Virus record (IMG/VR): IMGVR_UViG_2894625894_000003
Location: 32,001 to 96,000 of that record
Reading direction: 5' to 3' (one strand)
From: a virus
Taxonomy: Duplodnaviria > Caudoviricetes
Length of the DNA stretch: 64,000 nucleotides
The notes under the pieces are model-generated. The model saw nothing but the letters and a program-made list of their open reading frames with translations, was not told where the DNA came from and searched no databases. The position numbers and the translations under genes were made by a program. How positions within the stretch are numbered: the first letter of the stretch is position 1; each line of letters opens with the position of its first letter. Of this stretch, positions 20,878 through 45,996 are shown one piece after another.

Positions 20878-23800
20878 TTACCGGCTGTTCTTGAAAACCA
20901 TCTGAAGGTACTGCAGCTGCTGCTCGGGATTAAGCAGTTTCATCACCTGCCAGAAGGGAGCAAAGATGGATTTATAGAGCTTGTTTTCCAGTTTATAGTC
21001 CCCCTGTTGGTACCCAGGGCCTGACCGGTTATACTGATCGTTAAACGTAAAGTTGATCCCCTCCTCCCCGTATTCAACACCCACCAACTGGCCGAGTAAT
21101 CCTACCGTGGCATCATACGAACGGATCTGGGCTAGCGGGGACTTGACGATCTGCAGGGCCTTGTCCCATGTAAATACCGGTCCCAGATGGCCTGGTACGA
21201 TATACCAGGGTAAGTACATACCCACATCATCGGCCATCCGACGGGCAAACAACTCCAGGTTCAAAAGGACCACCGACCGGTCTTCATCGTCATCATCCTC
21301 GTTGAGCGCATGTAGACCAGCGGCCAGCAATCCCATCATACCAAACACAGCCAGCTCAAAAGTTGTCCGGTACATGGCCGAGCGGAGATCCCCGGTAGCA
21401 TCTCCGTAGACAAACTGATCGAAGCCTTCCAGGTTTTTACTGAGCCGGCGCCCCGACAGAGCATCCAGAGCACCCGCTGTGGGTCTCAGGGCTACGTTCT
21501 TCAGCCCATACCAAGCCAGCTGGGCAATTCCTTTCTGGTCATAGACCTCCTTGTAGAGCTGAGCCAGGTACTGCCGGAAGTAGCCCTCTGTCACGTCCCC
21601 CGATTCCCAGTCAAACCGCCGACGGGAAAACCGGCTCCGGAAGCTGGAATAGAGATACTTCTTGAACATCATGGCCATCTTGCCCAGCCATCTTCGCTGG
21701 AGCATCCCCTTATCGAGTTTGTTGTAGTGGCCATGCAGTTCCTTATTAACCGAGTGGAGCCGTCTCTGGAAATCCCGCAGTATCTCATCCGAGACCTCAC
21801 TGGACCAGCTTACTACCTCACCTGGCTGGTGTTCGACCGCTTCCCACAATGATTTACCGGAAGGGAGTTTGTAGCCCCGCATGAGCTGGACCATCGACTG
21901 GGTCTGGATCAGGTGTTCGGCTCCCGACTGAGTCCAATACAAGGCTCGGTCCTGCATCTTCTGGGCATTACCGATACGGCTTAATTCCCCAAACTCGTCG
22001 ATGGCCTCCCCCTGGATGGCATCAAAATACAACGTCAGCTGACCCAGCTTTGACTTTTTATTCAGACTGGGCTCCCGCAGGTCCTTGAAGAAATCCCCGT
22101 TCCGCATGGCCGTCCAGTAGTCTCCCATTGCTGCCTTGGCATCGGCCGCCGTCGAGTACCGACCCGAGATCGCTTCACTCCAGTTGGAGAACAGCCCCAT
22201 CCCTACGTTGCCAAACATGGAGGTTACGTTCCAGGCCAGGGATGTAAAGGAGGCATAACCCATCATTCCCTGAGCCGCCTTGTTAAGATCCAGATTGCCG
22301 AAGCCCGGCATATTCAAGAAGGCCTCGTGGGTTTCCTCTCCGTAAACGACATCATCGATAAATTCCAGGAGCTTCTGATTCAGCCGGGGACCCTGGGTCT
22401 TGAGTCGGTTGTCAAGACCTTCCAGCAATTTCCGACCCCGGGCTGGTAGCCCTTCCGGGTTGTATTGGGTAGCTGTCCGGGCATTGATGCCCAGTAGAGA
22501 ATCCCCCGCAACCAGCGTTCGTAGTAACTGTACCTGGGGCTCCAGTTGCCGCATGGACCGGTATTGGTTGGCCCCCATCCGGTAGGCCATTACCGATCGA
22601 AACAGATCCATCTCCAGTTTATCCTCGTCAATGAACTGTACGTGACGAACCGGGATCCGCCGGACTGGGTCATTGTTGAGATACTGTTCGACGGCGGGAC
22701 GCCCGGTTGCCTGATCCGGTTGGTTAAGCTGTAGGTTCTGCCAGTAGTCCAATTTCAATACCCCCCGGAGCCAGTCCCAAAAACCGTCCCACCGGGATTT
22801 AGCCAGTTGGGTAGCGGAGGTTTCGATAGCTGCCACCTGGGGTAGGATGCCGTGTTTGAGGCCGACTCCCCCCAGCTTATAACCCGCTCCGTCCCAGGCC
22901 GCATAGAGTTTCTGATAATAACCCAACATGGGCTCATCCTGGCGGAGGTTTTGCCAGGCCTGTTTACTGAGTCCGGCAAAGCCCCCCGCTTCCACGTGGT
23001 ACTGGTCTTTGCGGAGCCGTTGCATGTCCCCGCCCCAGTAAGCATAGCCCACTACGTTCTGATGAGCCGTAGCACTACTAAGGTTAACCCACTCCCATTG
23101 CCGGCTTTCCCCAACCTGTTTCTGGACCAGCAGATAGCGGTTAGCCCCATCGTGATAGCCCGCGAGGTTATCAACCCAGTCGGCATTCTTTTTATCCTTC
23201 CAGGAAGCAAACAACTTGGCCACATCCTGGTCTTCCCGAATCCGCTGGTAGCTGGTATTGTTCCGCAGGTAATTAGACAGATGCTCGGTTGTGGGCTGGG
23301 TAGGCCTGCCCTGCCGGTCCAATACCCCATTCTCGTGGAGTTTCTGTAGCCGCTCGGTACCGGTGACGGTCTCCTGGTGTTCCCCGTAGAACTGGCCAAT
23401 CAGTGTATTTTTTATGTTCCGGCGGAGCAGGTAGGGTTTGTCTTTGGACCAGGCCCAGTCCTTCAGCACGGGTTCGGTGGTTTTCTGCCCCTTGCGGAAA
23501 TTATCGAATAACCGGGTACGAATGGCATCATACGCCGGATTACCCTGACGACTAAGCAGGAAGTTAAACAAGGCCCGATCATCCGGCACCCCGTCTTCCT
23601 GTGGCATCACGATGTCCCATAGCGCGGATACCCGGCCAGGCAGCTGGTTATAGAAAGCCGTCTGGTGAGCTTCCCATTTGGCCGTATCAAACTCAGTCAG
23701 AAAGGCCTTTTTGCGGTGAGCTTTAAGCTGCCTGGTTTCCCCAAAGACCGTAACCGGTATGACTGGGTTGCCCGCTTCGATCCAGGCCTCATCAGCCTCC

Positions 23801-25434: not shown

Positions 25435-28400
25435 CAGGCAGGGGTTGAGCAGTCATTGATCTGCTGGTCAGTATCCGAGAGGGGTGGCTGGGGGGCCATC
25501 TCAGCTTTCTGGCTGAGGGCGGTGACGGTTTGCCGGTTTCTTGACAGAGCGACGTATTTGAGAGCGTTCTGTTCGTTGAGGTAGGGCTGGCCTTTGGATT
25601 GGATAACCCGGTCGGCCTGGGTATTCTCCAGGTTGTCGTAGTCCACAAAGGTATGACTATAGGTAGACCCTTGTGATTTGTGTACCGTAACTGCGTAACC
25701 GTAATCGATATTTTTCTCAAAAACGGCCTTCTGGGGTTCCCGTTCGAAAGGCATCATGCCCGTGGCATCCTTTTCGAAGAGTTCAGGGTGCTGTTTACGA
25801 AGCATACCCATCGTCGTCATCTGCCCTCGGAAACTAACCAGATCCTGGGGCATCTGGTAGGTCGAGAAGAAATCATCGAAATCCTTACTGGCCGCCTGCC
25901 GGAACTTCCAGGGAACGGACCGGTTGTCGACAAAGGACTTCCAGGCCACCAGCTGGCGAAACAGAGGTATGTTGTCGGGATCCTCCGGGTTGAGTATTGT
26001 CACCCGGCTGGGTTTGAGCAAGTCATCCTCCCCCAGCTCCCGCATCAGGGCCTGATCCTCGGGCGTAAACAGGGGCTGCAAGCTGACCTTATAGCCTGAC
26101 AAAGACACTTTAGGAGCCGGTTGGCCGTCGATCAGAAACGGAATCCGGATTTCTTTCTGGATGTATTCCGATTCAAGAATCTGGTAGTCCATACCATTCT
26201 GGACTTCAGGGTTTTCGCCAGACTGGTTGTAGCCCATCAGAATGTCCCCTACTGCATACTCACCCGTCTTACCCTGCACAGTCCGAATCAACCGGTTATA
26301 AGCGGCTACCGAGGAATTGGTATAGCTGAGCACTTTGGCAAAAAGAGGGTCCGTCTGGTAGCTGGTCGAGGTAAAGGCCCGCTCCAGAGCCTGCTGGAAG
26401 GCATTCCGGTTTTTGGTAAAATACACCCCGTCTCCATTGCTGGCCTTTTGGGTGTACATCGGATACTTCTCGGCCCGGTTCAATAGGTTCTGCCGGATAG
26501 TCGTCAAAATACCAAGCTGAGGGTTTTCTGAGGAAATCCGTTTAACCTCCGTCAGCTCAACCCCGTCCTGGGGACCCGTAAACTGTAGGGCATCCGAGAG
26601 GGTTGTCTGCCCTACGGGAGGGAGCTGAGCCGGATCCCCCATGAAGATAATGCTGGAGCCTTTCTGGCGGGCCAGCATCATCAGGTCGTCGTAGTCCGAA
26701 CGGGCAATCATGGACGATTCATCCATAATCAGAATACCATTCTGGGGCATCTTGTTATTCATGCCCAATACCCACTGACCGTCTTCCTTGCGTTTATTGA
26801 GAATCTTGGCCATCGTAAACGATTCGGCCCGAATACCACCCCGCAGCATGGACAACTTGAGAATCAACCGGGCTTTGTGGGTAGGGGCTCCCAGCATGAT
26901 CGGTTTAAAGCCGGATTTCTTATTCTGCCGGAAGTACTGAACAATAAACTTGGAGATTGTCGACTTACCTGTACCGGCATACCCCCGTAAAACGAACTGG
27001 GTTTGTCCCGCCTTGATCGCATCGACAGCCGCCTGGAGGGCAGCTCCCTGCTGGGATCCCAGTTCAAAGCCTGTCTCGATTACCGTTCCATCGGTAAAGG
27101 TGAACACCGGTCCCGAGGGTGTTTTAGCGGAAGCCGTTTCGGTTTCGGGCTGACCGGCCGTTTGTGGATTCTGCCCATTATTTTCATTATAGGCATCTAC
27201 AACTTTCTGAACCCGGGCTTTAAACTTGGTATGGGTCTCCCCCGCTCCCTGGTTCAGTAATGCATCAAAGGCCCGGTTGTTTTCGTCGAGGAGTACGTCC
27301 ACTTTCTGACCATAGTAGTTGTAGGTGACCGTAGTGGTTTTAGGTTCGTCCATTTTAGGAGCTTCCACTACTGGTACTTCCTTCGGCTCAACCGGTTTCC
27401 CAACCGTGTTAGCCGTCTTGGTCAGTACGTCCCGAATGGCCTGACGACCCGACTCCTTGAGATCCCGTGAGCCTATACCCGCAAAGTTTTTGGTCAGTGT
27501 GGGGGTAACTGTCGGCTCCCAGGTCCGGGTGGCAGGGTTCCAGGTATTCCAGTTCCCCGCCGTCTGGTCAAACACATATACCGGTTTTTTATCCAGTATG
27601 GCCCCGTAGATAGCATAGATCGTACCTCGGTCCAGCGGGACATTAGTACGACCCGCCCGGGTACCAAAGCCTTTCGAGATGGCAAAGACAGCGTCCGAAT
27701 AATACACCTGGCCATAATTTCGATACCGGTAGTGACCGTAACCCCGGTCGACATTTTCCCCAAAGAACTTGTCGATGGTATCAGCTACCTCTTTCCCCCG
27801 GGCATAGATAGCTTCATCCAGTGGGGTAGCCTTCCGACCTTTGTTACGTAGGGTCATTGAATCGACCGATCCCTGTCCAGGCTCCCGGTAGTGAATCGAC
27901 TTTATACCCAGTCGTTCTCCTTCCAGATCCCAGGCCTCATCAGCCCCCTGAGCCCCACCACTGTGGTTGACAAAGTCTGTTAATACCGCATCCACAGTAG
28001 GAACCGGAGTTGTGGGGACCTCCACCAGATCTGTTCCTAACACACTCCGGTAATAGTTACGGATGGGCTCCCCACCTGGTGACTGAATCCAGTGTCGAAG
28101 TAGCTTTCGGGACTCTTCCATCGGCTGGGGATCCGTAGTGACTGGACTCACGGCCCGTACTCCCAGTGGAACACTCTGCAGATAAACCGCCCGGTACCCT
28201 TTTGCTAGTTCACTACCAGCTGCATCGGCTTTTTGCTGACTGCCAGCCGTATCGTAGTAGCGGAATAGCTCGTATACCCGATCTCTATAGGTAATGGTTC
28301 GGGGGAAAGCGACACCCTCCACATCACCCCGCAGACCCAGGCTGTTGATCAATGGTACTTTCTGGTTTTCGTTTTCGGCCGCTATCAGGGGGTTCATGTC

Positions 28401-31400
28401 AAAAGCCAGCATCGAGGGCCGGGTTTTACCCCGCAGATTCATGGGCTGCCCGTCCATACTGTAACCCGTCAACATCTTGTAGGCTTCCACCTTTTTGGCT
28501 AGTTCCGAATCGGCACGGGGTAGCCGGGTTTTCTGTAGCAGGGGTATGTAGCCGGCGTGGAGTTTCACCCGGTTGAGCAACTGATCTTCGTAGACCTCAT
28601 TGGGTTTGCCCGTAATAGAAGCCAGGCTCCCTGTTTCCATAAACCGGTTCAGCATCTGGCTCAGATCCGAGAACATGGCCGTATGAAAGATCTTGGAAAT
28701 ACTACCCATCCGAAACTGCCCCCCATCCTTCATCATAAAATAGTAGAACAGCTGGTGGGCCAGGCGGGGGCCTACATACCCCTCTTCGGCCGTATTCTTA
28801 TACTGATATAGATCAACGAAGGCATCCATCAACCCCTCCTGCTCTTCGGGCCGGAGTTTGGCAATCGAGTCGAACTTGAGTGTATCAACCCCGTCGGCCT
28901 CCGAGCCGAACTGACTGATGACCTTACGGAATAGTAGGTTTCCCCGTAACGGATGCTGAAAAGGTATTCCGGTATCGGCTTCCGCTACCAGACCCGGCTC
29001 CAGCTCTGTTCGGTAAAAATCCGACCAGGCCCGGGCCATCGTGGGTTCGTCTCCCGTTTGGAAAACCAGACTGGCTTTAAAACTCGTCGATGGATGGGCC
29101 GGTGAATCCTGCTGGCTCAGCCAGTGACTGTAGAGGGTAGTCAGTAGGTAACTCTCCACGTCATCGGCAACTCGTTCCCGGTCGGTCGTTGACAAATAGC
29201 CCAACTGCCCCTCAAGCCGTTGCTGGAAGCCGACAAAGGCGGGTGTTCGGCGGAGGAACAACTGCTGCTGAAGGGCCTGCTGACCGGGAAGAATCCGGCG
29301 GATGTAGTTGTGCAGCTGGGCCGCTTTTTGCTTATTTACCGGCGCTTCCAGGGCATCGGCTACCCAGACGGCACGGCTGTTTTTATACTCCTCATAATCC
29401 TCCCGCAGGCTGCCGTCCTGGTTGTAGCCGAGGTTAGCCCGGCTGGTAACCAGGTTATCAAAACTAGCCATATCCGAGCCGAAGCCTTTCTTGAGTTTGA
29501 CAAACCGGGTTAGATCCGACAGATGATTATTCATCGTTTCCAGGTTGACATAGTCAAACAGGATCTGAGCTTCCAGGCCCGGATTACCCAGTGGGTTCAC
29601 GCCCAGCTGTTGATAGTCTGTAGCGGGCACCGACGTTCCAGCCCGGTTGGCCAGCAGTAGGCCGGTTAGCTGATCAGTCGTATAGGTCAGCTCATGGTCC
29701 TGGAAGGGAGTATCCCCCAGTAGCTCGGATAACAGTTTCTGACGGCTCTGTATCCGTAGACTGGATTCAGAGTCTCGCAGGACGGCATAGTCCTTAAGTC
29801 GGGAAGCCTGTAGATACCGTTGTATCACCGGTTGGTTGACAAACAGCAGGGCCTCTTTCAACGAATACTGCCCCGTGGCAATGAGCTGGATAACCACCCC
29901 CTGAGAGGAGTCAGTCAGACCGAAAAAGGCATTGAGCTGCTCCTTGGCCTCGTCGGTATCCGCCGTGATGATCGTCGAAATCAAATCGAAGACCCGGGTC
30001 ATCCGGCTGGGATCCGTAGCGTCTTTGGTCATGGGCTGAAACAGAGCCCCACCCCGGGCCAGCGCCTGGGTTTTAAACCCGTTCAGCCGGGGTAAAAAGT
30101 TTGGGTTGATCACCACACCCAGATCCATAGCCCGGATCAGCGTCAGGTTCCCGTTTACCCCGATACCGATTAACCCTTTTCCCGTCATATTACCCCGGTG
30201 AACCCGGCTGTGGGCACCAAACCAGTGCAGGGCAATGGGCTGGCTGGTCTGCCCAAACAAACTGTGCTTACGGCCTTCCGTATCCGTATAGGCACTATCC
30301 TTCAATTCATTAAGGGCATCTAAACTAGCTGGTGTATTGTAGATGGCGTCACCATCCAGACCACCCAGTGTCTGGGTATTAACCAGCGCCTGCTGCTGAA
30401 GAGCCAGTAACTGGTTGTTGACCCAACCATTGTTGAGTAGGTTCCCTCCTTTTTCCAGCCAGTCGGTAACGTTAGTCGGCAAACCAAACTCGGCCATAAT
30501 TATATTCTCCTGCTGGCGAATTAAGGAGGACAACTCCCGGGTGGGCTCCAGCAGCTGCCGGCGGACATCGTTCAATATCGACAGCGTCTGGTAGGCATCC
30601 CGTTTGTCGGCCGAGAGGGCAAACAAAAACTGTCGATCGTCCCGATCCAGTTCACCATCCAGATCCAGCAGCCGGGTCATGGACTCTTTTATCTGTTGGA
30701 TTTCCTGATAACCGGCCTGACTGGCTCCTTTGATCTGATCCAGTTGAAACCGGAAGTCAGCCACCCGTTGTTGTAGGGTCTGGTACAAGGGGGTGTCCAG
30801 CAGGGCTTTTTTCCGTAGACTGGTCAACACCTTGGTATGGGAAAAAACATACTTCCGGTAGTCTTCGTAATTACCCTCATCGGTGGGCTGGGTACCGTAG
30901 GCTACGAATTGACCGGCTTTCCAATACCCTTCCGTTTTTAAGGTGTACTCTTTATCCACGTCAAAGTCACCCCCCGACAGTTCCACAACCTCAGCTGGCA
31001 GAATGATCGATGAGCCCAGGTAGTGAGGCAAGGCATCGACCCACTCCATGTTCATGGCCGAGTGCTTATCCTGGGAAGGAATCCGGATACCGACCATATC
31101 CCGAAGGGCCTCTTCCCGGCCCGTCATCCGGGCTTCCCAAGGCGGCAACAGCATTTCCGAGAAATAGCCTGTAACAGCGCCAGCCTCCCAGCGAGGCTTG
31201 ACATGTCGTAGCCGGTCGATAATATACGGATTACCCGATTCGATAGCCTGCCGGGCAGTAATATACCAATCCCCGCTCTGTTCAGATTCCGTGCCTGCCC
31301 AGCTGGCATTCAGCTTGCCGTCTGTATAGGTATGGAAAAACCGTTTATCGGACAACTCAGTAGTTTGTATTCCCGACATACTCAGCCGGTAGTAATCCGG

Positions 31401-34400
31401 ATCATCTTCCCGAATGACATCCCAACTGATATGGGGCCGGCCCTGACTATCCAAAACGGGTTGACCACTGGCATCGGTAACGTAGCGGAGTTTCTTGAGC
31501 AGCTTGTGCCCGTAGGAGCTCACGTGAGCCGGGGCATCACCTGCCCGCTTGTGGCTCAGTACCTCTTTGGTGAAATGAGAAAAGAACTGGGCTACGAACT
31601 TATCGCGGCTCAGGGGCATATTCAGATTGAATTGCCGGGCGGGGTCGAAAAATTCGACGAGTTGTTTATCCCCTCCCGAAGCCAGCAGACCCTGCACCGC
31701 TTTTTCCTTGAAGCGGTCGAGCCGGATTTCCAGCTCCCCGTTCACCTCCCCCGTCACCAGCGTTTTCCAGGCCAGCTCGTAGGCATTTTTATCCCGAGCC
31801 GTCTGCAGCTGCTGCCAGAGTTTGCCCACTTCCAACGCTTTAATGGGTTTGCCCTGGTAGTGAACCACCAGTTCCCCTTTCAGCTCGTTGAGGGTAATTT
31901 CCAGCATCTGGGTCGGATCGACAATCTTGGTTTTACCAGAAGGGTTGTCAGTCTGCAGCCCGTAAAAATTGGCATCGATCAAATTGACGTGGTGGCTGGA
32001 TGCCCGGCCGAAGTCGAGCTGCCCGTCTTTAGCCCGAACTACATTCGGCGTCAGCATCTTGGAGGCAGAGACGGGCATCACCAGGTCGATACCAGCCTGG
32101 GGACCACCGTAGGTCCAACCCTGGTCGGTTTGGGTCCAGCCTTCCATACGGAGCCGCATCTGGTGCAGTTCTTTTTTGTTAGGCTTTTCCACCCAGAGTC
32201 GGTACTGCCAGTTGCCTGCTTCATCCTGCCAGGCCGACACATCCCCATCCTGGGAGCGGCTACCGGGCTGAATGCTGTACAGGGTTTGGAACCCCGTCGG
32301 CAACCGTCCTCCCCGGCGGGCAAATTCATCGGCCGAAATCACCACCGGTAAAGAAGTCATCTGCCGGCTTAGCAGTGTATCCGACTTTTTGAGGTATTTC
32401 TGCCCATCGGCCCCTACCGTTTTGATCGAGTTAAAAATGACATCATTGTCGTACATCTGCTGAATCTCCTCGGTCGACAGGGGCTGGCCCGTCTGGATCT
32501 TGTCCAGCATCCGGGCATGCGGTACCGACAACCGGGCCTGCCCCCAGAGGGCATACCGGTAGCCATCAACAGTGGTCCAGTTCTGGGCATCGGCAAACTT
32601 GATGTTGTCACCCGTCAGGTCCGATTTCAGCACGGGCTCGTCGGTGACGATATAGCGGAAATGGGTAAGGGGCCGGGTGATGCCTAGTTCCGGAGCCGTC
32701 AGTTGGGAGGCAAACGCCCCGATGGCCGCATTTCGGCCCTTGAACCGTTTGAACATATCACCCCCGTCATTTTTATAGGTCAGGGCCGGATCGCCATGTA
32801 CCATGCCATTGAGGGCGTGGGTGTTCAGAAAATCAGACAGCAGCTTGCTGTAGAGGTTTTCTTTCAGGACCGCTTCATCCCAGCTCCAGCCGGTGATTTC
32901 CTTGGTTTTGGGATCCCGAATGACGCTACCCGCCGTTACCATACCCGTCTCGGCATCTCCTTCCAGAAAGGAGCGGTGAAGCAGCAGATCATCCTGGCCC
33001 AACACGCCATTTTCCAGCAGGATCTGCCACTGGGCATCCAGGGCTGTTTGAACACCTTCCTGCAGCCAGCTTTCCAGCTGGGTCAGCTCCTCAAAGGGAA
33101 CACCCCGCATGGCAGCCAGTACCAGGTTGTTGGTAACCTGTTCAGCACTAGGCGCCTGATCCCGGAAACCAAGGGCCGTCATTCGACTGCTGCCCGCCAG
33201 TGCCCGTACTGAATCTGAGAACTCCAGTGCCCGAAAACCTTTCTTGGGCAAATACAATGTCTGTTCAGGCTGGGTTTCGGACAGGGCTGGCAAGGTGACA
33301 GCTTTAAAGTCTGTTGCCTTACCGGTATTGTAACTTTCGTACTGCTCGGAAAGTCGGCTGGGGTCAAACTCAACGGCTTCCAGCTGTCGGTAGACGCGGG
33401 CAATCCGTTCGTATTCGGGCCGGATCGTTTGCTTGAATAGTGTCAGGGCCTGCTTCGAGAGCTGACCTCGGCTATAGAGATTCTTTAGATAAGGCAGCAA
33501 GACAAAGTCAGCCGTCCGGCTGGTCTCCAGATTGCCCAGGTAAACGGGCCGCAGACTCAGCCCCGCTCCGTTTTCCGATTGGGTAAAGAAGCTATTGAGT
33601 CGGTAGAGGTCAAATTCCCGGTCCGACATACTACCAAACGAGATGCCGTCACTGGCCGCCTGGTTGTAATCCCGGACCATTCGTTCTTTGCCATCCTCCT
33701 TGTAAGATTGCTGGCGGAGACCGTCGGCAGAGAAATGGATCATCTTGGACCGCATGGCCTGATAGGCAGGATCCCGGGCCAGTTTGTCCAGAAGCCAGTT
33801 CTGCTGATAGAACCCCAGGTCCTCACTCAAATAATGAGTAAACCCGTCGGGGTCCTGCCGGAGTACGGTTCGGTAGCCTTCCAATAGAGAGTTCCAGTAA
33901 TCGAGGCCATCGGCATCCACCAGGTAGCGAAAGAACTGAAGGTGAAACGTTTTGGCCTGGTGGGCGTAAATGGTTTTTCCTTCCGCATTCTTGTAGTTGG
34001 ACTCCATAGCCGACTCATCAAACCGGGCATTACCTTTGGCCAGGTTACGTAACCGGCTCACCATCCCTCCTTTTTCGTCACTGGTCCGGGAAAACGGATC
34101 ACCTCCCTGCCGCAGCTGGTCGGCCAGCGCCTTGAGGAAAGGGCGGCTGAGGAGTTGGTTTTTCTCCAGATTCGTCATGGCCAACAGACTGGCATCGGCC
34201 GACGAGAGTTCCGCTTCGGGGAGCTTGGAGGCAGCCAGTACCGAATACCGAACGTAATCACTACTTAACCGGATACCCAGCTTGTCGAGCAACTGAACCA
34301 GTTGCCGGCTGCGGGTGGCTACCTGCCCACTGGCGGACACGGCTACGTCCATATCAGCCAGCTGGTCTACCAGAGCTGGGTCAGGGGTTGCCTGTTGATG

Positions 34401-36179
34401 GAAGGCGGATGCCCAGGCCGACACCTGGGTTAAATCCACCCGGTTGGTATTGGCATTAAAAAGTTCACCGTGTAGGGTCTCAGGATCAAAGAGCATGACC
34501 ATGTTCTGGCGAACCCAGAGATCAAAACCCTTCAGCACCCGGTTGAGCTTTATTTTGGCCGGGGTGGCCAGAATACGGTTGAGGTCCGTATCGGCCTGCG
34601 GGTTATGAACCGACAGCTGTCCGGCCAGGATGGCATCAATCAGTTGCTGACGGCTAAGGGTAGCCCCCTGGGCCATATCATCCACCAATCGGTCGACAAA
34701 GGCCCGGGTGTCCTCATTACCCGATAACTGAGAAAATTGGATCAGCCCTCTCAGCCGGCTTTCGTCCGAGCGGGTATTGCCCAGGCTACGGGCCAGGGCA
34801 TAATAGATCTTTCCGGCATCGACGGCCTGACGAACGGGTATATCCTGAAAGCCGCCCGTGGGCAACTGAATACGGTGAATCCGGGGATTACCCTGCCCGT
34901 CCAGTACCGGACGGCCCACCGTAGCAATGTATTGTTTGAGCCAGCTCGATAGTCCCTGGGGACCTACCTCGTTGGCTGCCTGCTCGAATCGGTCGAACTC
35001 AGAGGCTCCCCCATCGGTATCTTCATCGGTCTCAGCGGCCAGCTCCTGGTAGGATTTCATTCGGTCCAGGTAGGCCTGCACATCGGCAACGATCAGCGGA
35101 TACTGGGCGTTGGCAACCGTGGTTTTACTGGCACCAAACCCACGGCTCATGGTTGGTCGTAGTTGTTCGGCAATCAGCTTGTCCTTGGGTGTATCACTCG
35201 ACTGGTAATACGAAGCCCAGGTGGACAGGGCTGCTTCGATCCGACCCGCTTCAGAAAGATTTGGGAAGGCCGAGGTGTCCAGGGCCAATAGGCCAATGTT
35301 CCAGATCAATTGCTGGGATTCGGTAGAGGACATGGTATGCCCGTCTGCCCCCAATTCGATGAGCCGGGTGGCAGGAACGGTATCGTAGTCGGAGCTGGTC
35401 AGGATACGCGCTTTAGCATACTGTCCCTGGGCGATCTTGTCAAAAAGAAGCTCGGCCTTCTCCCGGTTTTTGTCGTAATAACCCAGTATCTTATTCAGGT
35501 ACCGGTAAAGGTTAGTAAACAGCCTGGCTACAGCCCGGGCCGTTCCCACACCTAAATAGGGTTTGAGTTGTTCTGTTAGTTTCCGTTGTAGGTTGTTGTC
35601 GGCTAGATCCATATAAGATCCGTAGGCCATACGAGAGACGAACAGACGAGCCAGTTCCTCCTCGTATAGCCGGTTCAATCCCGCTTCTTTGGAAAGAGCC
35701 TCGTAGGTTTTTGGGTAGACTGCCCGAGTAGTCTGGTAATGGTTTTCCAGACTACCCATTCCCCAGGTTGACAGCCGACTTTCCAGCAGGGCTTTACCGA
35801 CTCGTAAATATTCCGATTTTTCATCGGCTGGTATCAAACTACCGAATATCGCGTGGAAGCTCTCTTCCCAGACCTCGTCCCGGCGGATAGCTTTGCCGAA
35901 GTATAGGGCATTCTTCCAGAAGGCCGCCGACGTTTCGGGCGGAACCATGGCCGCTATCTCCGAGAGCTCACCCACCCGGAACTGATCCGGGTCGATGAGT
36001 TCGGCCATCATCTGCTTGGCCTCGTCCAACTGAAGAGCCGGACGGGTTAGATGGTTCCGCCAGGTTTGGTAGTCTGGCAGTAACCCATCGTGCAGAATCA
36101 GTTGGTTATATGTTTCCTGGAGACCAACCTGGGCAGTCCATAACTGAATATCCGGGTGGTTCAAATTTAAACAATCCAT
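25434..36179 (-). CDS. Virion-packaged RNA polymerase (crAss-like) fused to C-terminal SLOG domain and SF1 helicase
   Basis: GIRIPSQDKHS (~31080), catalytic GGDFDVDK (~30960), DTDEAKE; SLOG-like ~27420-27975; helicase motifs GYAGTGKS, MDESSM, GDPAQLPPV, TVHKSQGSTY, YVALSR; ATG 36179 (MDCLNLNHP) preferred. Confidence 0.92.
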   Translation of the reverse strand: MDCLNLNHPDIQLWTAQVGLQETYNQLILHDGLLPDYQTWRNHLTRPALQLDEAKQMMAELIDPDQFRVGELSEIAAMVPPETSAAFWKNALYFGKAIRRDEVWEESFHAIFGSLIPADEKSEYLRVGKALLESRLSTWGMGSLENHYQTTRAVYPKTYEALSKEAGLNRLYEEELARLFVSRMAYGSYMDLADNNLQRKLTEQLKPYLGVGTARAVARLFTNLYRYLNKILGYYDKNREKAELLFDKIAQGQYAKARILTSSDYDTVPATRLIELGADGHTMSSTESQQLIWNIGLLALDTSAFPNLSEAGRIEAALSTWASYYQSSDTPKDKLIAEQLRPTMSRGFGASKTTVANAQYPLIVADVQAYLDRMKSYQELAAETDEDTDGGASEFDRFEQAANEVGPQGLSSWLKQYIATVGRPVLDGQGNPRIHRIQLPTGGFQDIPVRQAVDAGKIYYALARSLGNTRSDESRLRGLIQFSQLSGNEDTRAFVDRLVDDMAQGATLSRQQLIDAILAGQLSVHNPQADTDLNRILATPAKIKLNRVLKGFDLWVRQNMVMLFDPETLHGELFNANTNRVDLTQVSAWASAFHQQATPDPALVDQLADMDVAVSASGQVATRSRQLVQLLDKLGIRLSSDYVRYSVLAASKLPEAELSSADASLLAMTNLEKNQLLSRPFLKALADQLRQGGDPFSRTSDEKGGMVSRLRNLAKGNARFDESAMESNYKNAEGKTIYAHQAKTFHLQFFRYLVDADGLDYWNSLLEGYRTVLRQDPDGFTHYLSEDLGFYQQNWLLDKLARDPAYQAMRSKMIHFSADGLRQQSYKEDGKERMVRDYNQAASDGISFGSMSDREFDLYRLNSFFTQSENGAGLSLRPVYLGNLETSRTADFVLLPYLKNLYSRGQLSKQALTLFKQTIRPEYERIARVYRQLEAVEFDPSRLSEQYESYNTGKATDFKAVTLPALSETQPEQTLYLPKKGFRALEFSDSVRALAGSSRMTALGFRDQAPSAEQVTNNLVLAAMRGVPFEELTQLESWLQEGVQTALDAQWQILLENGVLGQDDLLLHRSFLEGDAETGMVTAGSVIRDPKTKEITGWSWDEAVLKENLYSKLLSDFLNTHALNGMVHGDPALTYKNDGGDMFKRFKGRNAAIGAFASQLTAPELGITRPLTHFRYIVTDEPVLKSDLTGDNIKFADAQNWTTVDGYRYALWGQARLSVPHARMLDKIQTGQPLSTEEIQQMYDNDVIFNSIKTVGADGQKYLKKSDTLLSRQMTSLPVVISADEFARRGGRLPTGFQTLYSIQPGSRSQDGDVSAWQDEAGNWQYRLWVEKPNKKELHQMRLRMEGWTQTDQGWTYGGPQAGIDLVMPVSASKMLTPNVVRAKDGQLDFGRASSHHVNLIDANFYGLQTDNPSGKTKIVDPTQMLEITLNELKGELVVHYQGKPIKALEVGKLWQQLQTARDKNAYELAWKTLVTGEVNGELEIRLDRFKEKAVQGLLASGGDKQLVEFFDPARQFNLNMPLSRDKFVAQFFSHFTKEVLSHKRAGDAPAHVSSYGHKLLKKLRYVTDASGQPVLDSQGRPHISWDVIREDDPDYYRLSMSGIQTTELSDKRFFHTYTDGKLNASWAGTESEQSGDWYITARQAIESGNPYIIDRLRHVKPRWEAGAVTGYFSEMLLPPWEARMTGREEALRDMVGIRIPSQDKHSAMNMEWVDALPHYLGSSIILPAEVVELSGGDFDVDKEYTLKTEGYWKAGQFVAYGTQPTDEGNYEDYRKYVFSHTKVLTSLRKKALLDTPLYQTLQQRVADFRFQLDQIKGASQAGYQEIQQIKESMTRLLDLDGELDRDDRQFLFALSADKRDAYQTLSILNDVRRQLLEPTRELSSLIRQQENIIMAEFGLPTNVTDWLEKGGNLLNNGWVNNQLLALQQQALVNTQTLGGLDGDAIYNTPASLDALNELKDSAYTDTEGRKHSLFGQTSQPIALHWFGAHSRVHRGNMTGKGLIGIGVNGNLTLIRAMDLGVVINPNFLPRLNGFKTQALARGGALFQPMTKDATDPSRMTRVFDLISTIITADTDEAKEQLNAFFGLTDSSQGVVIQLIATGQYSLKEALLFVNQPVIQRYLQASRLKDYAVLRDSESSLRIQSRQKLLSELLGDTPFQDHELTYTTDQLTGLLLANRAGTSVPATDYQQLGVNPLGNPGLEAQILFDYVNLETMNNHLSDLTRFVKLKKGFGSDMASFDNLVTSRANLGYNQDGSLREDYEEYKNSRAVWVADALEAPVNKQKAAQLHNYIRRILPGQQALQQQLFLRRTPAFVGFQQRLEGQLGYLSTTDRERVADDVESYLLTTLYSHWLSQQDSPAHPSTSFKASLVFQTGDEPTMARAWSDFYRTELEPGLVAEADTGIPFQHPLRGNLLFRKVISQFGSEADGVDTLKFDSIAKLRPEEQEGLMDAFVDLYQYKNTAEEGYVGPRLAHQLFYYFMMKDGGQFRMGSISKIFHTAMFSDLSQMLNRFMETGSLASITGKPNEVYEDQLLNRVKLHAGYIPLLQKTRLPRADSELAKKVEAYKMLTGYSMDGQPMNLRGKTRPSMLAFDMNPLIAAENENQKVPLINSLGLRGDVEGVAFPRTITYRDRVYELFRYYDTAGSQQKADAAGSELAKGYRAVYLQSVPLGVRAVSPVTTDPQPMEESRKLLRHWIQSPGGEPIRNYYRSVLGTDLVEVPTTPVPTVDAVLTDFVNHSGGAQGADEAWDLEGERLGIKSIHYREPGQGSVDSMTLRNKGRKATPLDEAIYARGKEVADTIDKFFGENVDRGYGHYRYRNYGQVYYSDAVFAISKGFGTRAGRTNVPLDRGTIYAIYGAILDKKPVYVFDQTAGNWNTWNPATRTWEPTVTPTLTKNFAGIGSRDLKESGRQAIRDVLTKTANTVGKPVEPKEVPVVEAPKMDEPKTTTVTYNYYGQKVDVLLDENNRAFDALLNQGAGETHTKFKARVQKVVDAYNENNGQNPQTAGQPETETASAKTPSGPVFTFTDGTVIETGFELGSQQGAALQAAVDAIKAGQTQFVLRGYAGTGKSTISKFIVQYFRQNKKSGFKPIMLGAPTHKARLILKLSMLRGGIRAESFTMAKILNKRKEDGQWVLGMNNKMPQNGILIMDESSMIARSDYDDLMMLARQKGSSIIFMGDPAQLPPVGQTTLSDALQFTGPQDGVELTEVKRISSENPQLGILTTIRQNLLNRAEKYPMYTQKASNGDGVYFTKNRNAFQQALERAFTSTSYQTDPLFAKVLSYTNSSVAAYNRLIRTVQGKTGEYAVGDILMGYNQSGENPEVQNGMDYQILESEYIQKEIRIPFLIDGQPAPKVSLSGYKVSLQPLFTPEDQALMRELGEDDLLKPSRVTILNPEDPDNIPLFRQLVAWKSFVDNRSVPWKFRQAASKDFDDFFSTYQMPQDLVSFRGQMTTMGMLRKQHPELFEKDATGMMPFEREPQKAVFEKNIDYGYAVTVHKSQGSTYSHTFVDYDNLENTQADRVIQSKGQPYLNEQNALKYVALSRNRQTVTALSQKAEMAPQPPLSDTDQQINDCSTPA

Positions 36180-36189
36180 TCGTGGGTGG

Positions 36190-39100
36190 TTAATGACAGT
36201 GACGGATAAGAGCCTCAACCCGTTGGGCCAGCTCTACCGGAGAGAGGGTTACGTGCGTAACGGGAACAGAATCGGTGCGGGAGAACAAGCCACTTGCCGG
36301 ATCCGTCAGCAGGGCTCTGTGTTCGGGGTTCAGCTGGGGATCCAGCTCGTTGATTTCCGCGACAGCCGCCGGGTCGGCTTTCAGCATTGGTCCCCCTGTA
36401 AAAATCAAGCTGGGATAAGGCTGGCCCGTCTGGGGATTGATCCCCCCTGAGACTCCGTGCGTTGCTAGGACAAACGTACGGATTTTTTCGGATAATCCGA
36501 GATCTTTCAGCTCATTAGCCAGTTCATTTTCCAGTTTTTCTACTGGAATATCTATAGCCACTTCTTCAGCTATTTGCTGGCTGGTTTCCGGCTTAGGGGG
36601 TAATGCAACAACGACCCGATCTTCCCCTAACGGATTGTGTGTATCCAATTCGGAATTTACCCGTAGACGAGTGGTCAGGTTATTGTACATAAACACGACC
36701 GGGGAGGCAATCCGAACCGACCGGCTCAAGATGGTCTCGTCGAGCTTTAAGCCCCCCTGCCGAACACTAATCTCACCCAGCTCTAGGGTCTGCTTGCGGC
36801 TGGAATCCTGCCCGGCATGAAACGTTCCATTAGCTGTTGCTGTCAGTAACCGGTTCAGTTCACCCGGTTTACCCACTTGGCTGGCCGATACGTATTTGTC
36901 GGAATAGTACTGCTCACCGTTGTGCTTATACGTCAACCGCAGCACCGGTTTATCCTTCACTGTATCCAGTACCAGGTGTAAGTCGCTGATACCGGTTTGG
37001 GGAGCCCCGGAGGCTGCCACAAAGTAATCGGTGAGGTTAATCAACTGGGGATTTTGGGACAGGGCCTGGGTCAGCTGTTCATCGGCATAGGGGGACTCCA
37101 CGGGCAGAAACAACAGCTTACCACCAGGGGTGGTCACCAGTACATGATAACCCAGGTGAGGCTTGCTGGTGGTGTTGTCCTGGAAATAGGCCTGGACGGC
37201 TTTTCGAATCCGGGTCCGGGGCTGCTGATCCAGGGGAGCTTCGACCAGTGTGGATAAAAACGAACCGTACGTATCGACGATCGGACTGCGGGCATCCCCC
37301 TGCAGATGCACCACCACCGGTCCCCGGATCGCTCCCCCGGGACTGTCAAGAACCAGATCGGTGTGGACCAGACTGCTGATGGGTTGCAGACCGCCGGGGC
37401 CAGGACGATCCAGGGGCATCAGCCCGTGGGGATTTTCACTGACTTCAAGCCGACTTAGCAGACTGTTCAGCATACCTTCCGTCAGGGGTTGGTTGACGGC
37501 CTGTTCGAGAAGTAGATTGGCAAGGGTAGATCGAAGGCTTTCGTACTGCCAGTGAATAGTCAGCCACTCTTGCAGGCTTTGCCGAAATCCTAACCAGGGC
37601 CGGCCCGTCTGAGGATCCGTTTCCAGGAGGGCATTATAGACATCCTGGGTGAGCAGCCCCGACTCAACCAGCTCATTAATTAATATGTTGGACTGCCCAA
37701 GCCGTGGTTGTAGCGGATGGCTGGCTGGTAATCGGGTTTGTAGAAACCCCCTGGCCCGTTCGGATAATTCCAGACTATGATCGAGTGGAATGGAGAGAAC
37801 CAGCTGATTATCCAGACGGGCCGTTAGTAACCGACCGGGGGTTCGACGGGCCAGGCCCGGATCCCCTTTGAGCTCGGAAGCCGTTCGAACCGGCGTCGGT
37901 GCCTGGATTGCCCAGGACACATTCGACAGGATTGCCCGTTTGTCGGCTACCGTATCAGCGGGTACCCGCCAGAGCCGGGCAAACTTGGCCTTGGCCATCA
38001 GCCAGGCCGACATACGGTCGAGTAAATCCCAGTTTTTAGTTTGAATAGCCCCGGCAATATTAGTAAACTTGGGATCACCCTGGCGACCCAGATTGGCATC
38101 CCACTCGTCCCAGAGAACCGATTCGAGGTATTTGGATGCTACCGATCCTTCATCGCCCCGTAGGGTACGGTCGAGGGGAGGGGTTGGGGCTTTGGGAGGT
38201 GTGGGTGGTTTAGCGGTGATGCCCTGCCGCTGCACCTGGACCAGGCCAGCCAGATACGGGGTAAGCACACCCTGATCCCAGAAAGTCAGTAGGAGTCGTT
38301 TAAAAGTATCGGAAGTTCCTGCCAGGGCTGCATCCAGTTCGGCAGAACGGCGTATTTTATTGTTAGCCAAATCGTTCAGCAGCGCCTCTACCCGGTCGGC
38401 AGATACCGGTCCCTGCAGGGCAGCGGTCGCCAGTTCAGCCAGATAATCTTTATCGAGTCCCAGTTTATCGGCCAGCGATTCAACCTGATCCGACATAATG
38501 GTTTTATTGGTAGCCGGTCTTTCCTCAACAGGTGCCGAAGTGGGTACTTCAACGTACGGATCTATGGATGAGCCGGCCTGATCCCGGATGGCCTCTGCCT
38601 GCAATTGGGCCTCGATCTGGTCTGAGTAGGCCTGATAGATCTCCTGCTGCCGGTCGCTAAGCTGACGGCCCGATTTAAGGGCCGCTGTCAACTCCCGTAG
38701 AATCGGTTCCTGACTGGCGGTGGGTAATTTCCCCGTATCGACAAACTGATCCCAAACCTGATTGACAATACCCCCTTCTTCAGCCAACGGATCACGAGTA
38801 GGCGTAGTGGGCATGGTTGTCACCGGTCCCGGACTGGGAGCAGCAACCGGCGCCGGTTGGGGTAATGGTAATTCAGCCTCATACTGCTCTTTGACCAGAG
38901 CGAAGATGGTAAAGGCATCCCGGTAATTTTCCTGGGCCGCTACGGTTTTTAGTTTCCGCTCCAGCTTGACATAGCCGGGATCCAGGCTCTGACGGGCAAT
39001 GATGCCATTATCCGCTTTGAGATCCGTTAGTAAATCGTCCAGAAACTGCTTCCGCTCCGTTTGTTGCCGGCGGTGTTCATCCCGCTGCCGGGTTAACTCG

Positions 39101-42100
39101 GTGGTGAGTTGAGTCCGGGTAGCTCCCTCATCTGCCTGGAATTGGGGCAGGTAGGTATCGATTAGATCCGAGAGGTCATTCCCCAGAACGGCCTTCCGTT
39201 CGGTTTCATTGGCGAATACCCCACTGATGTGATCATGCAGGGATTGCCGCTGAGCGGCCCGACGAGCCGTTTGCTGAGCCTTTTCCAACACTTCCTTCTG
39301 ACGCTGGAAATCCTCGGTCTGAGCCACAAAGTCGGTAAACCCCCGCTGACTCTTGAGTTTATCGGATCGGTCGGCCAGTGTTTTCAGAGCTGCTTCCAGG
39401 GCCTGGGCATCGTGGGCCTGCTGTAAAAGACCTTTGGTCTGCTCGTTATCCTCCAGATTGACATTAAACTCACTGGTGGCCAGTACCTGCCGGGCCGTCG
39501 AGACAGCTTTGTCGAGGGGAAAATCTGCTGATTCCAGTTCCTCGATCCAGGTCTGTTGCTGATCGATTTCCTTCAACCGGTCCTCAAAGCGGTCCAGCAA
39601 GTCGGCTTCCAGTTCCCGGGTTAGCCGATCGGTCTCCTCGGCGTGTTGTCTCACTTTAACTCCGTGACTGGCATCGGGATTTTCGGGGGCCACCGGCCGG
39701 GAAGCCTGTTGCTGGAGATCGAGGGCCTTTCGTTCCTGGTCGATGGTTTGCTCGATGGTTTTCTTTTCCCGGGCCAGTTCCACCCGGCGGCTACGCCAGC
39801 CTTCGGGGGTGATGAGCTGGGTAAGGTCTTCCATCGTCAACCCACTGCCACTACCACTGATAGCCTGTCCCAGCGACTGCCGGCGGTCCGTATACGCTTT
39901 CCTGATAAATTCAGCGTGGAGCATTTCATTGTAGTAATCCTCCCACTGACGATAGAGGGTCTGCTGCTCGGCACTGGCATCGGCCGTGAGCCGGTATGGA
40001 TTTTTGTACAAACCACTTAAGCGGTCCTGAGCTTTTTCCAGTGTCCTCAACGTCTGGTCCATACCCTGTACGAGCCCCGAGAGTTGCTCCTTACTGAAGC
40101 TGCCCGCGTCTCCCAATCCAAAGGCCTGAGTAAATTCTTCGGGCCGCTGGTTGATCGTCTCATTCCAGGTTTTGAACTGTTCCCGGATCAGATCCCCAGA
40201 CCCTTGTTTGACAAATGGTAGCAGGAAATGAAACTGAGCCGAGTTTTTCAGGTTCTGAAAAACGAACTGATCCGACAGAAGAGCGGCATCCTTTTGTAAG
40301 GTAGTCAGGTTCATAGAAGCCTGAGCCTGCTGAGCTTTCTGGTCGAGGCTATTGCCCAGACTCTGGCGTTCCAGCAACATCCGGGCAGCCTCCTGTACGG
40401 CCACCGGCGACAGGTTGAACTGCCGGGCAATCTCCTCGAAGCGGGCTTTCTGCTCAGGGCCGTTCAGGCGGTCGACGACGTACTTGGAAACACCCCCACC
40501 AATACGGCCTACGATCAAACCACCCAACCCTTCGGTCCACCCTTCCCGGGTTCCGAAGGCCTGCTGTAATCCATGCAGAGCCGCTTCCAGGGCCAGATCC
40601 GTATCCTTTTTGGATACACCTGACTGCTGTAGCTGGTAGTAGTGCTGGCTGCCCTCTGAGATGGCCTTTTGAAACTGTTCTTCCAGCATCTCCGACGAGT
40701 TGCCAATAAGCAGCTCTTTACCCTCGTTTCGAGCAAATGTAGCCACCTTACCGAAGGCCTTCTCGTACCACTTCTCATTGGCTCCGAAGGTAATGAGGGT
40801 AGGCTTGTTGGGGACCACGTCAAGCTGAGCCGGGTTGCCCGCTTTCTGTTGAAGTCGGTAGAGGTCATCGGCCTGGCCGAAAAGACGCTGAGCCTGGGGA
40901 AAGTTTTTCAGAATCGTCCCCAGCTGGAAGGTATTGGTTACCCCCAATAAGGCATGGTTTAGCAGAAAAGTCGCATTACCGGCCTGCTTGGCGGCTTCTC
41001 TAAACTTGGCTTTCTGGTCGGCATCCGGCTGAGTGCCGGTACGTTGCCGGTAATCTCTCAGGAGCTGCTGGTAAAGTTCCCGTTCGGCCTGGTAGCCTTC
41101 CAGGGATGCCTCCCCATTCGCTTGCAGAAAACTGTGCAACAGGGGTTTGGCCCCTACCCGTAATCCGATGGGGGTGTCGATGCCATTCCATACCGCCGAT
41201 GCCCCCAGTAGCAGCTTGTCTCCCCGACCGGCCTGCTTGGCTGCCTGATAGGCATCGTCGAGATAGGTCAACGACCGCTCCACGGTGGAGAGCCCTTTAG
41301 TGAGTTTGGCTAGCCGGTTGGTCCAGCTGGCAGCTAGTATCCCCAGGCTGGCCCCTTCGGTTAAGGGGGCCGCTGCTGAGAGCAACGCCGTCTCAATCAG
41401 TCCCGTTGTCAGACCACCAGCCAGAAAACCAAAGCTGCGGGCCAGCGACCCAAAGTCATTCCCACCCTCTCCCATAAAGGGAACCAGGTTCAGGTTGGGA
41501 TGCTGACGAGCCCAGTCACTCTGGAAGTTCTGATGGGACTCGTCGATCCGGGTCATCCAGTCATTGATATTCCGAAGGGCGGATCCTTCATCGCCCCGCA
41601 TGGATTCGGTAAAGGCATCCAGCCCGTGGATGTTACCAGCCAGCAGGTCTTTGGTAGTTTTGATTAACGTAGGCAAACTAACACTCCAGGCCCCGACGGT
41701 ACCCAGGGTGTTGACTCCTACCATGGTAGTGTCGTTCCAGAGCTGCCCCCAGAAACCCTGCCGTGCATTGGCATAGGCTTCATTGTCCCGGCCTCGTAGG
41801 AAATCAAAACCATTCTGGTGAAGCCGGTTGGTTTCCTCTACCTCGGCCTCACTCATTGGATCGGCCCGAACGGCTATCGCCTGCGCATTAACGGGGTCTT
41901 TCTGCCATTCGTCATTTTGACCCTTAACCCAATTCATCAACCCCTGAGTCATCAAATTACTCCGGTCGGTATCGGTCAGTACAGAAGGGGCCGCTGGATC
42001 TGATAGAGTAGGCTCATGCCAGCTGGGTGCGGGTTGTGGCTTGGGATCCTGCCAATCTTGGGCAGCGATGTCGGGTCCACCCGGTGGTTCCATGCCGGGA

Positions 42101-42171
42101 GAAGGCATACCCGTTAGGGGGGCTGTAAACTCTGTTGGTAAAATCTCGGAACTAGCCGGTGTGGGATTCAT
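36190..42171 (-). CDS. Giant virion (ejected cargo) protein 1
   Basis: 1993 aa upstream of vRNAP; Gly/Ala-rich hydrophobic segments near N-terminus, GEASLEG motif, long coiled coils. Confidence 0.85.
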   Translation of the reverse strand: MNPTPASSEILPTEFTAPLTGMPSPGMEPPGGPDIAAQDWQDPKPQPAPSWHEPTLSDPAAPSVLTDTDRSNLMTQGLMNWVKGQNDEWQKDPVNAQAIAVRADPMSEAEVEETNRLHQNGFDFLRGRDNEAYANARQGFWGQLWNDTTMVGVNTLGTVGAWSVSLPTLIKTTKDLLAGNIHGLDAFTESMRGDEGSALRNINDWMTRIDESHQNFQSDWARQHPNLNLVPFMGEGGNDFGSLARSFGFLAGGLTTGLIETALLSAAAPLTEGASLGILAASWTNRLAKLTKGLSTVERSLTYLDDAYQAAKQAGRGDKLLLGASAVWNGIDTPIGLRVGAKPLLHSFLQANGEASLEGYQAERELYQQLLRDYRQRTGTQPDADQKAKFREAAKQAGNATFLLNHALLGVTNTFQLGTILKNFPQAQRLFGQADDLYRLQQKAGNPAQLDVVPNKPTLITFGANEKWYEKAFGKVATFARNEGKELLIGNSSEMLEEQFQKAISEGSQHYYQLQQSGVSKKDTDLALEAALHGLQQAFGTREGWTEGLGGLIVGRIGGGVSKYVVDRLNGPEQKARFEEIARQFNLSPVAVQEAARMLLERQSLGNSLDQKAQQAQASMNLTTLQKDAALLSDQFVFQNLKNSAQFHFLLPFVKQGSGDLIREQFKTWNETINQRPEEFTQAFGLGDAGSFSKEQLSGLVQGMDQTLRTLEKAQDRLSGLYKNPYRLTADASAEQQTLYRQWEDYYNEMLHAEFIRKAYTDRRQSLGQAISGSGSGLTMEDLTQLITPEGWRSRRVELAREKKTIEQTIDQERKALDLQQQASRPVAPENPDASHGVKVRQHAEETDRLTRELEADLLDRFEDRLKEIDQQQTWIEELESADFPLDKAVSTARQVLATSEFNVNLEDNEQTKGLLQQAHDAQALEAALKTLADRSDKLKSQRGFTDFVAQTEDFQRQKEVLEKAQQTARRAAQRQSLHDHISGVFANETERKAVLGNDLSDLIDTYLPQFQADEGATRTQLTTELTRQRDEHRRQQTERKQFLDDLLTDLKADNGIIARQSLDPGYVKLERKLKTVAAQENYRDAFTIFALVKEQYEAELPLPQPAPVAAPSPGPVTTMPTTPTRDPLAEEGGIVNQVWDQFVDTGKLPTASQEPILRELTAALKSGRQLSDRQQEIYQAYSDQIEAQLQAEAIRDQAGSSIDPYVEVPTSAPVEERPATNKTIMSDQVESLADKLGLDKDYLAELATAALQGPVSADRVEALLNDLANNKIRRSAELDAALAGTSDTFKRLLLTFWDQGVLTPYLAGLVQVQRQGITAKPPTPPKAPTPPLDRTLRGDEGSVASKYLESVLWDEWDANLGRQGDPKFTNIAGAIQTKNWDLLDRMSAWLMAKAKFARLWRVPADTVADKRAILSNVSWAIQAPTPVRTASELKGDPGLARRTPGRLLTARLDNQLVLSIPLDHSLELSERARGFLQTRLPASHPLQPRLGQSNILINELVESGLLTQDVYNALLETDPQTGRPWLGFRQSLQEWLTIHWQYESLRSTLANLLLEQAVNQPLTEGMLNSLLSRLEVSENPHGLMPLDRPGPGGLQPISSLVHTDLVLDSPGGAIRGPVVVHLQGDARSPIVDTYGSFLSTLVEAPLDQQPRTRIRKAVQAYFQDNTTSKPHLGYHVLVTTPGGKLLFLPVESPYADEQLTQALSQNPQLINLTDYFVAASGAPQTGISDLHLVLDTVKDKPVLRLTYKHNGEQYYSDKYVSASQVGKPGELNRLLTATANGTFHAGQDSSRKQTLELGEISVRQGGLKLDETILSRSVRIASPVVFMYNNLTTRLRVNSELDTHNPLGEDRVVVALPPKPETSQQIAEEVAIDIPVEKLENELANELKDLGLSEKIRTFVLATHGVSGGINPQTGQPYPSLIFTGGPMLKADPAAVAEINELDPQLNPEHRALLTDPASGLFSRTDSVPVTHVTLSPVELAQRVEALIRHCH

Positions 42172-45976: not shown

Positions 45977-45996
45977 CGAGTAACCACCTTATAATC

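Follow-up and report, generated by a model that had tools for sequence, protein, structure and literature searches.

How crassviruses store a protein cargo of ~0.7-0.8 MDa, including the polymerase that starts infection, and how they eject it in good order, is the question raised by a 64,000-nt stretch of DNA from a crAss-like element (positions 32,001 to 96,000 of IMG/VR record IMGVR_UViG_2894625894_000003; the whole stretch is called the window below). It encodes three giant proteins, here named P1, P2 and P3 (Table 1), and their few cysteines (Cys) are confined to the ends at which neighbouring proteins face each other. A cargo block associated with the RNA polymerase (RNAP) of crAss-like phages was known already, as was the suppression of Cys in ejected proteins. 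Recent papers on N4 and crAss001 explicitly leave the organisation of the cargo unresolved in the excerpts used here, the cargo being invisible in cryo-electron microscopy (cryo-EM) maps, and the excerpts of the literature searched, including those of the crAss001 and phi14:2 papers, contain no description of terminal Cys pairs or of a tethered thread in crAss cargo.

By exact count, P1, P2 and P3 together comprise 7092 residues with four Cys, which stand at position -2 of P1 (negative numbers count from the C-terminus), at positions 3 and -5 of P2 and at position 3 of P3, while both outer ends of the series, the start of P1 and the end of P3, have none. An earlier note on this DNA, made from the letters alone, had claimed this very arrangement of four Cys at facing termini with two bare outer ends; the count agrees and adds no internal Cys, and translation confirmed the codon coordinates that the note had given. 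Alignments with homologues back the start codons, for P2 through its invariant C3 and L4 and for P3 through its invariant M1 and C3. At 0.056%, the Cys frequency of P1-P3 compares with ~0.97% in the window, a suppression on the scale of orders of magnitude: the remaining 47 open reading frames (ORFs) of the window contain 0.9-1.0% Cys, from which ~69 would be expected in 7092 amino acids (aa), and the probability of finding four or fewer is ~1e-24. If four Cys were placed at random, the probability that one would fall in each facing 5-residue end is ~6e-12. As a control we considered the other ORFs, where 9 of 121 Cys (7.4%) lie within 10 residues of an end, compared to 7.1% expected by length; a general enrichment of Cys at termini is absent from the ORFs of the window.

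As judged by motif and profile, P2 is a crAss-type two-barrel virion RNA polymerase (vRNAP) with a C-terminal helicase. The DFDxD motif of crAss virion RNAPs, defined in the preprint of Drobysheva et al. (10.1101/2020.03.07.982082), appears in P2 as DFDVD at residue 1738, with D1738, D1740 and D1742 invariant in eight homologues, and the P2 profile A1 matched its orthologue crAss001 gp50 with E = 2.5e-26; the label vRNAP, which had been attached to P2 by reading its translation, is thus borne out. In a local search profile A1 did not detect phi14:2 g066, crAss002 gp33 or cr118_1, and the link of P2 to these proteins therefore rests on the DFDxD motif and on gp50. The N4 vRNAP was not matched in PDB searches with P2 or its profile, and the catalytic motif of P2 is of the two-barrel type. 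Sequence and profile searches of PDB with P1, P2 and P3 returned helicase matches only and did not match 6VR4. The helicase domain with which P2 ends is complete and was recognised through PHROG 325 (E = 1.1e-66), through Dda (PDB 3upu, E = 5e-12) and through the Pfam families AAA_30 (79 bits, cut-off 27) and AAA_19 (57.7 bits, cut-off 25.1). Among metagenomic P2 homologues, many have the same domains and others have 2OG-Fe(II) oxygenase, NADAR or RNase H domains.

For P3, profile A2 matched crAss001 gp49 (E = 2.7e-42) and phi14:2 g065 (E = 8e-31). A motif scan, the only method used for this purpose, found no string of the zincin-like peptidase motif HExxH in P3 and found HEIMH at residue 245 of g065. 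P1 corresponds to gp47 of crAss001 and g067 of phi14:2 in position and size: a phmmer comparison detected no similarity, so that the agreement is limited to position, size and the single C-terminal Cys. A word-index search with P1 gave one distant homologue, scans of IMG/VR with P3 and P1 gave no relatives, and a later genome search produced a P1 homologue in a Spirosoma oryzae prophage (36% identity, 1812 aa), whose single Cys is at -2 and which, like P1, ends C-H. In P0015 (1670 aa) the single Cys is the last residue. On the strength of orthology to phi14:2 and crAss001, P1-P3 are probably packed in the head and injected. In crAss001, gp47, gp49 and gp50 are virion proteins by mass spectrometry, and their supposed exit is through the tail in a partly unfolded state (PMC10172136), in line with what the earlier note had said of crAss cargo, and in phi14:2 gp66 enters the host together with the phage DNA (preprint 10.1101/2020.03.07.982082).

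We then turned to the relatives of these proteins, a comparison that the earlier note had proposed, and found the terminal Cys to be conserved down to ~22-25% identity. Each of 13 P3 homologues (24-39% identity) has exactly one Cys, at residue 3-5, and both C3 and the C-terminal Cys (C3577) are invariant in all eight close homologues of P2. In a wider set of 64 P2 homologues nearly all are extremely poor in Cys, with Cys in the first 3-8 residues, in the last 1-7 residues or in both. An exhaustive search with the RNAP core yielded 150 representatives with at most 50% mutual identity (559,169 aa), in which 178 of 285 Cys (62%) are found no more than 10 residues from a terminus and the frequency of interior Cys is 0.019%. 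The N-terminal Cys stood at residue 3-9 in 83 of 83 cases, and the C-terminal Cys at -1 to -9, most often at -2 and -3.

Complete series of these genes could be assembled from the window, crAss001, phi14:2, phi17:2, cyanophage Lbo-JY46, crAss002, DAC15, cr118_1, cr109_1, L008 and L007, and all 11 keep one rule, by which the first member has a Cys at its C-terminus only (-,C), the middle member at both ends (C,C) and the last at its N-terminus only (C,-). Across these series 15 of 15 junctions have a Cys on both sides (one of them at -58), and none of the 22 outer ends has one. In crAss001 the positions are -3 in gp47, 5 and -9 in gp50 and 5 in gp49; in phi14:2 they are -1 in g067, 3 and -2 in g066 and 3 in g065; and the DAC15 triplet has -3, then 5 and -1, then 4. 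The rule extends to two phages placed outside Crassvirales as currently classified, Cellulophaga phage phi17:2 (-1; 4 and -2; 3) and Leptolyngbya phage Lbo-JY46 (-1; 4), and in the S. oryzae prophage, the nearest relative, P1 ends as in the window and P2 has Cys7. From these alignments and counts we regard a conserved junction rule as practically certain.

What becomes of the Cys when neighbouring genes are fused bears directly on their role. Among unfused forms, in which the RNAP core lies at 1500-2000, an N-terminal Cys is found in 39 of 45. Where a P1-like part precedes the RNAP in one polypeptide (core at 2600 or beyond; 68 of the 150 representatives), the N-terminal Cys is found in 0 of 68 and the C-terminal Cys is retained in 65 of 68, and the former junction is not marked by any Cys. 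At the other end, crAss002 gp33, a fused form of RNAP and P3, has no C-terminal Cys, nor has a 2748-aa cyanophage protein with a P3-like C-terminal part and no DFDxD motif. A form that consists of a single 4553-aa protein, with no P3 gene adjoining, contains 0 Cys.

These observations bear on a model in which each terminal Cys binds a hub, such as the portal, an inner capsid protein or a small Cys-bearing protein, or else a second copy of the same protein. Small Cys-bearing genes do lie inside the block in some phages, namely crAss001 gp48 (63 aa) and a 119-aa gene in phi17:2, and certain copy numbers of the cargo would leave room for homotypic links. Such small genes are absent from the window and from phi14:2, and the model predicts neither the 22 of 22 Cys-free outer ends, nor the loss of both junction Cys on fusion (0/68), nor the complete lack of Cys in the single-protein form; we think it unlikely.

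The terminal Cys pattern is independent of gene adjacency, as comparison of the loci indicates. crAss001 and DAC15 keep the rule even with their first (gp47-type) gene encoded on the opposite strand, and in S. oryzae (PVTE01000009.1, L023:13814-18274) ~4.5 kb separate the P1 and P2 genes, both of which keep their terminal Cys. This insert includes a 356-aa ORF with 3 Cys. Chance, an annotation artefact or a signal at the nucleotide level could in principle have been suspected, since the Cys codons of the window are 23-25 nt apart across both junctions. A signal in the DNA is ruled out by the opposite strands, by the 4.5-kb gap and by the use of both Cys codons (TGT 23 times, TGC 6 times), and the low probability of random placement and the lack of terminal enrichment in other ORFs likewise speak against explanations of this kind, to which we attach a negligible probability. 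Interior Cys are tolerated where they are removed, as a comparison of two near-identical proteins indicates: P0043 has 5 internal Cys, every one of them within an intein-like insert of 354 aa (residues 2898-3252; Pfam Hom_end matches), and P0042 has no such insert and a C-terminal Cys only.

No His, Asp or Cys ligands are conserved beside the terminal Cys, and their position varies over the ranges given above; the variable position and the lack of flanking ligands fit a simple exposed thiol. Several specific roles were considered and set aside. A zinc clasp, to which the H-C-H end of P1 might point, has no conserved ligand; a lipobox Cys would need space for a signal peptide of about 15-25 residues, which a Cys at residue 3-9 does not leave; a CaaX prenylation box would need a Cys fixed at the fourth position from the end, compared to the observed -1 to -9; an N-terminal nucleophile would leave the C-terminal Cys unexplained; and for a split intein there is no room beyond the Cys. 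More generally, the Cys might be free thiols with another role, as a packaging or ejection signal, an acylation site or membrane anchor, a redox sensor or a catalytic nucleophile. Short conserved motifs near the Cys would suit such a role: P2 has C-L-N-L..P at its N-terminus, and the C-terminal Cys is preceded by stretches rich in Lys. The lipoprotein signal peptide, the CaaX box and the N-terminal nucleophile each misfit the positions, and free-thiol roles predict neither the parity of the junctions nor the behaviour on fusion, which makes them distinctly unlikely in our view.

The reading towards which we lean, with some reserve, is that P1, P2 and P3 would be joined head to tail into a disulfide thread already preformed in the virion. 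Such a tether would be the most economical reading of the comparative data, as the simplest model to predict outer ends without Cys, junctions with Cys on both sides and the disappearance of both upon fusion. Cys1992 near the end of P1 would bond with Cys3 of P2, and Cys3577 of P2 with Cys3 of P3, giving one nearly linear thread of ~7,100 residues, and the exclusion of other Cys would prevent mis-pairing that would branch or loop it. With Cys 0-8 residues from the chain ends, each bond would leave only short stubs, typically 3-6 residues summed over both sides, so that the chain, once joined, would remain nearly linear and fit to be threaded through the tail. It would then pass the portal and tail as a single polypeptide, mimicking the fused polyprotein forms of relatives, and the host cytoplasm could plausibly reduce the exposed disulfides, whereupon the three proteins would separate. 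The earlier note had proposed disulfides from C-terminus to N-terminus in gene order, which would fix stoichiometry and the order of ejection. That the terminal Cys are functional and paired across junctions gains strong support from their conservation, from junctions with Cys on both sides, from their absence on fusion and from their persistence without adjacency; the chemistry of the tether is probably disulfide, and we infer this chemistry, the formation of the bond in the virion, a fixed stoichiometry, the order of ejection and reductive release.

An alternative with the same pairs would be that the terminal Cys join neighbouring cargo proteins only after ejection, for example through periplasmic thiol oxidases as a trans-envelope conduit is being built from these proteins, or that they are joined through a metal ion or a thioether. 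The comparative evidence serves this version equally, for it shows that the ends belong together, not how or when they are joined; reducing conditions prevail in the gut as well as in the cytoplasm during assembly, and contact with periplasmic disulfide-forming enzymes is the usual explanation for the scarcity of Cys in ejected proteins (PMC11445570). Against it, a metal site is unlikely with no conserved extra ligands beside the Cys, and a tether formed after ejection leaves unexplained why a fused polyprotein is an equivalent solution before ejection. In addition, crAss001 virions do contain disulfides, which are interprotein and located at the tail and portal vertex (tail hub, ring proteins and gp57; PMC10172136). 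On balance we consider joining after ejection, or by another chemistry, to be rather unlikely.

Several points weigh against a disulfide thread preformed in the virion. Phage assembly goes on in the reducing environment of the cytoplasm, and the anoxic gut is home to many crAss-like phages, so that a disulfide would form after release or need catalysis. The bond chemistry is deduced from comparative data, and the pairing partners from parity and fusion data, and, depending on the copy number per virion, some links may be homotypic. An N-terminal Cys is missing from six of the 45 unfused homologues, among them at least one, P0080, that is probably a relic within host DNA; at one junction the partner Cys stands 58 residues away from the chain end; and in Lbo-JY46 a 674-aa protein of the structural block (L004:2626-4650 (+)) has a single unpaired Cys5, its upstream neighbour having no C-terminal Cys.

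Some individual members of the family deserve mention. P0080 (L018:10001-19831 (+)), with 45% core identity to P2, stands alone among transposase and host-like genes with no adjoining P1 or P3; it has lost the N-terminal Cys and kept the C-terminal one, and is probably the remnant of a decayed prophage. In crAss002 gp33 (L003:9270-22007 (+)) the first Cys, counted from the annotated start, is residue 35, and an internal M-S-C at Met33 matches the N-terminus of the family; the true start is probably 32 codons downstream of the annotated one. IAS virus (NC_049978), where the RNAP is split into 837 and 2159 aa (L006:13470-13530), was considered as a breaker of the rule and set aside, its junction being full of N bases; its RNAP is probably one ORF with Cys5 and a Cys at -3.

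The window shares its layout with crAss001 (gp47, gp50 and gp49) and phi14:2 (g067, g066, which is PDB 6VR4, and g065), in each of which the genes of three giant virion proteins follow downstream of those for the muzzle and the cargo. All three have an identical Cys pattern, P2 shares the DFDxD motif and is homologous to gp50, and P3 is homologous to gp49 and g065. In contrast, sequence identity is very low, P2 has an additional Dda/RecD-like helicase, and the element of the window is probably a prophage, as its position inside a 574-kb contig of a 7.5-Mb genome indicates, whereas crAss001 and phi14:2 are lytic phage genomes. The disulfides of crAss001 that were seen by cryo-EM (tail hub, ring proteins and the gp57 dimer) stabilise fixed parts of the tail and capsid; its cargo proteins are not resolved in the maps, and the excerpts of that paper report no bond between them (PMC10172136).

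The Schitoviridae offer a second likeness, with giant virion-packed RNAPs, ejection through a narrow tail and strong Cys suppression. Their ejection proteins (N4 gp50; DEV gp71, gp72 and gp73) contain 0.00075% Cys compared to 0.865% in the proteome (PMC11445570), and the same source bears out the earlier note's statement that N4-type vRNAPs are free of Cys. An N4-type vRNAP, with its T7-like polymerase, is a single chain that lacks terminal Cys, whereas the cargo of the window consists of several proteins with a two-barrel polymerase and exactly one Cys per facing end. The fused or 'polyvalent protein' forms (Iyer et al. 2017, PMC5512222; also noted in the Drobysheva et al. preprint) have the same domains in a single polypeptide; there the parts are joined by peptide bonds with no junction Cys and proteolysis is assumed to separate them, whereas the split forms would join reversibly via terminal Cys.

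If the tether exists, a conserved end-to-end link would explain stoichiometry, exit order and release, and also why split and fused forms of the genes can replace each other in evolution. More broadly, and only tentatively, we raise the possibility that a giant 'polyprotein' is reassembled through terminal disulfides in crAss-like phages and in some of their relatives beyond Crassvirales, as a ~0.8-MDa thread of uniform N-to-C polarity that would be packed 1:1:1 and leave in a fixed order, with a redox-timed release replacing the proteolysis of polyvalent proteins. In practice the junction rule spots members of the cargo chain that have no detectable homology and corrects start codons, crAss002 gp33 being an example.

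Table 1. Positions of the cargo genes, their terminal Cys codons and other features of the element (window coordinates unless another locus is named)
Feature	Position	Strand	Remarks
P1	36190-42171	-	1993 aa; first series member (-,C); no family assigned
Cys1992 codon TGT of P1 (penultimate residue)	36196-36198	-	exact translation count
P2	25434-36179	-	3581 aa from ATG at 36179; middle member (C,C)
Cys3 codon TGT of P2	36171-36173	-	exact translation count and homologue alignment
DFDVD, P2 residues 1738-1742	30954-30968	-	DFDxD catalytic motif of crAss-like virion RNAPs
Dda/RecD-like superfamily 1 (SF1) helicase domain, P2 residues ~3030-3553	25521-27092	-	PHROG, Pfam and PDB matches
Cys3577 codon TGC of P2 (fifth from end)	25449-25451	-	exact count and homologue alignment
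P3	20878-25434	-	1518 aa; last member (C,-); gp49/g065 orthologue
Cys3 codon TGT of P3	25426-25428	-	exact count and homologue alignment
Cys-poor 890-aa protein upstream of P1	42168-44840	-	probable further cargo protein; one Cys, at 843
crAss muzzle protein	52194-57245	-	Pfam crAss_MUZ 65 bits; PHROG 37948 E = 7e-106
Tail lysozyme	51442-52191		within window
crAss major capsid protein (Pfam Crass_capsid)	L015:13941-15638		~14 kb outside window

The genes around P1-P3 complete the picture. The start of P3 overlaps the stop of P2 by one base (TGATG). The nearly Cys-free 890-aa protein has its Cys843 48 residues from the end, and the N-terminus of P1 offers it no partner; it is probably incidental, because the S. 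oryzae counterpart of the protein (875 aa) has 0 Cys. Between the 677-aa and 890-aa genes, the minus-strand cargo block is broken by a plus-strand island of seven small genes (45026-49383 (+)), whose contents include two DUF6934 proteins and a protein with an ANT/KilAC antirepressor domain; a similar ANT gene lies upstream of P2 in a relative (L019). The tail region encodes two proteins with GDSL/SGNH hydrolase domains (11382-12530 (-) and 19329-20039 (-)), and the GDSL/SGNH protein of 382 aa has a single Cys, at residue 8.

Since the muzzle protein (crAss_MUZ) is present, we assign the window to a crAss-like element. Window positions 1-64000 correspond to G000:C33:448622-512621, a part of a contig of 573,714 bp from a complete genome of 7.5 Mb. 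GC content is 47.4% for the genome of this contig versus 54-56% for the phage structural block, and tyrosine recombinase genes lie at C33:558119 and C33:566675. The element looks like an integrated crAss-like prophage with an aerobic and probably cultivable host, and relatives of it are found in large contigs of Spirosoma oryzae and others.

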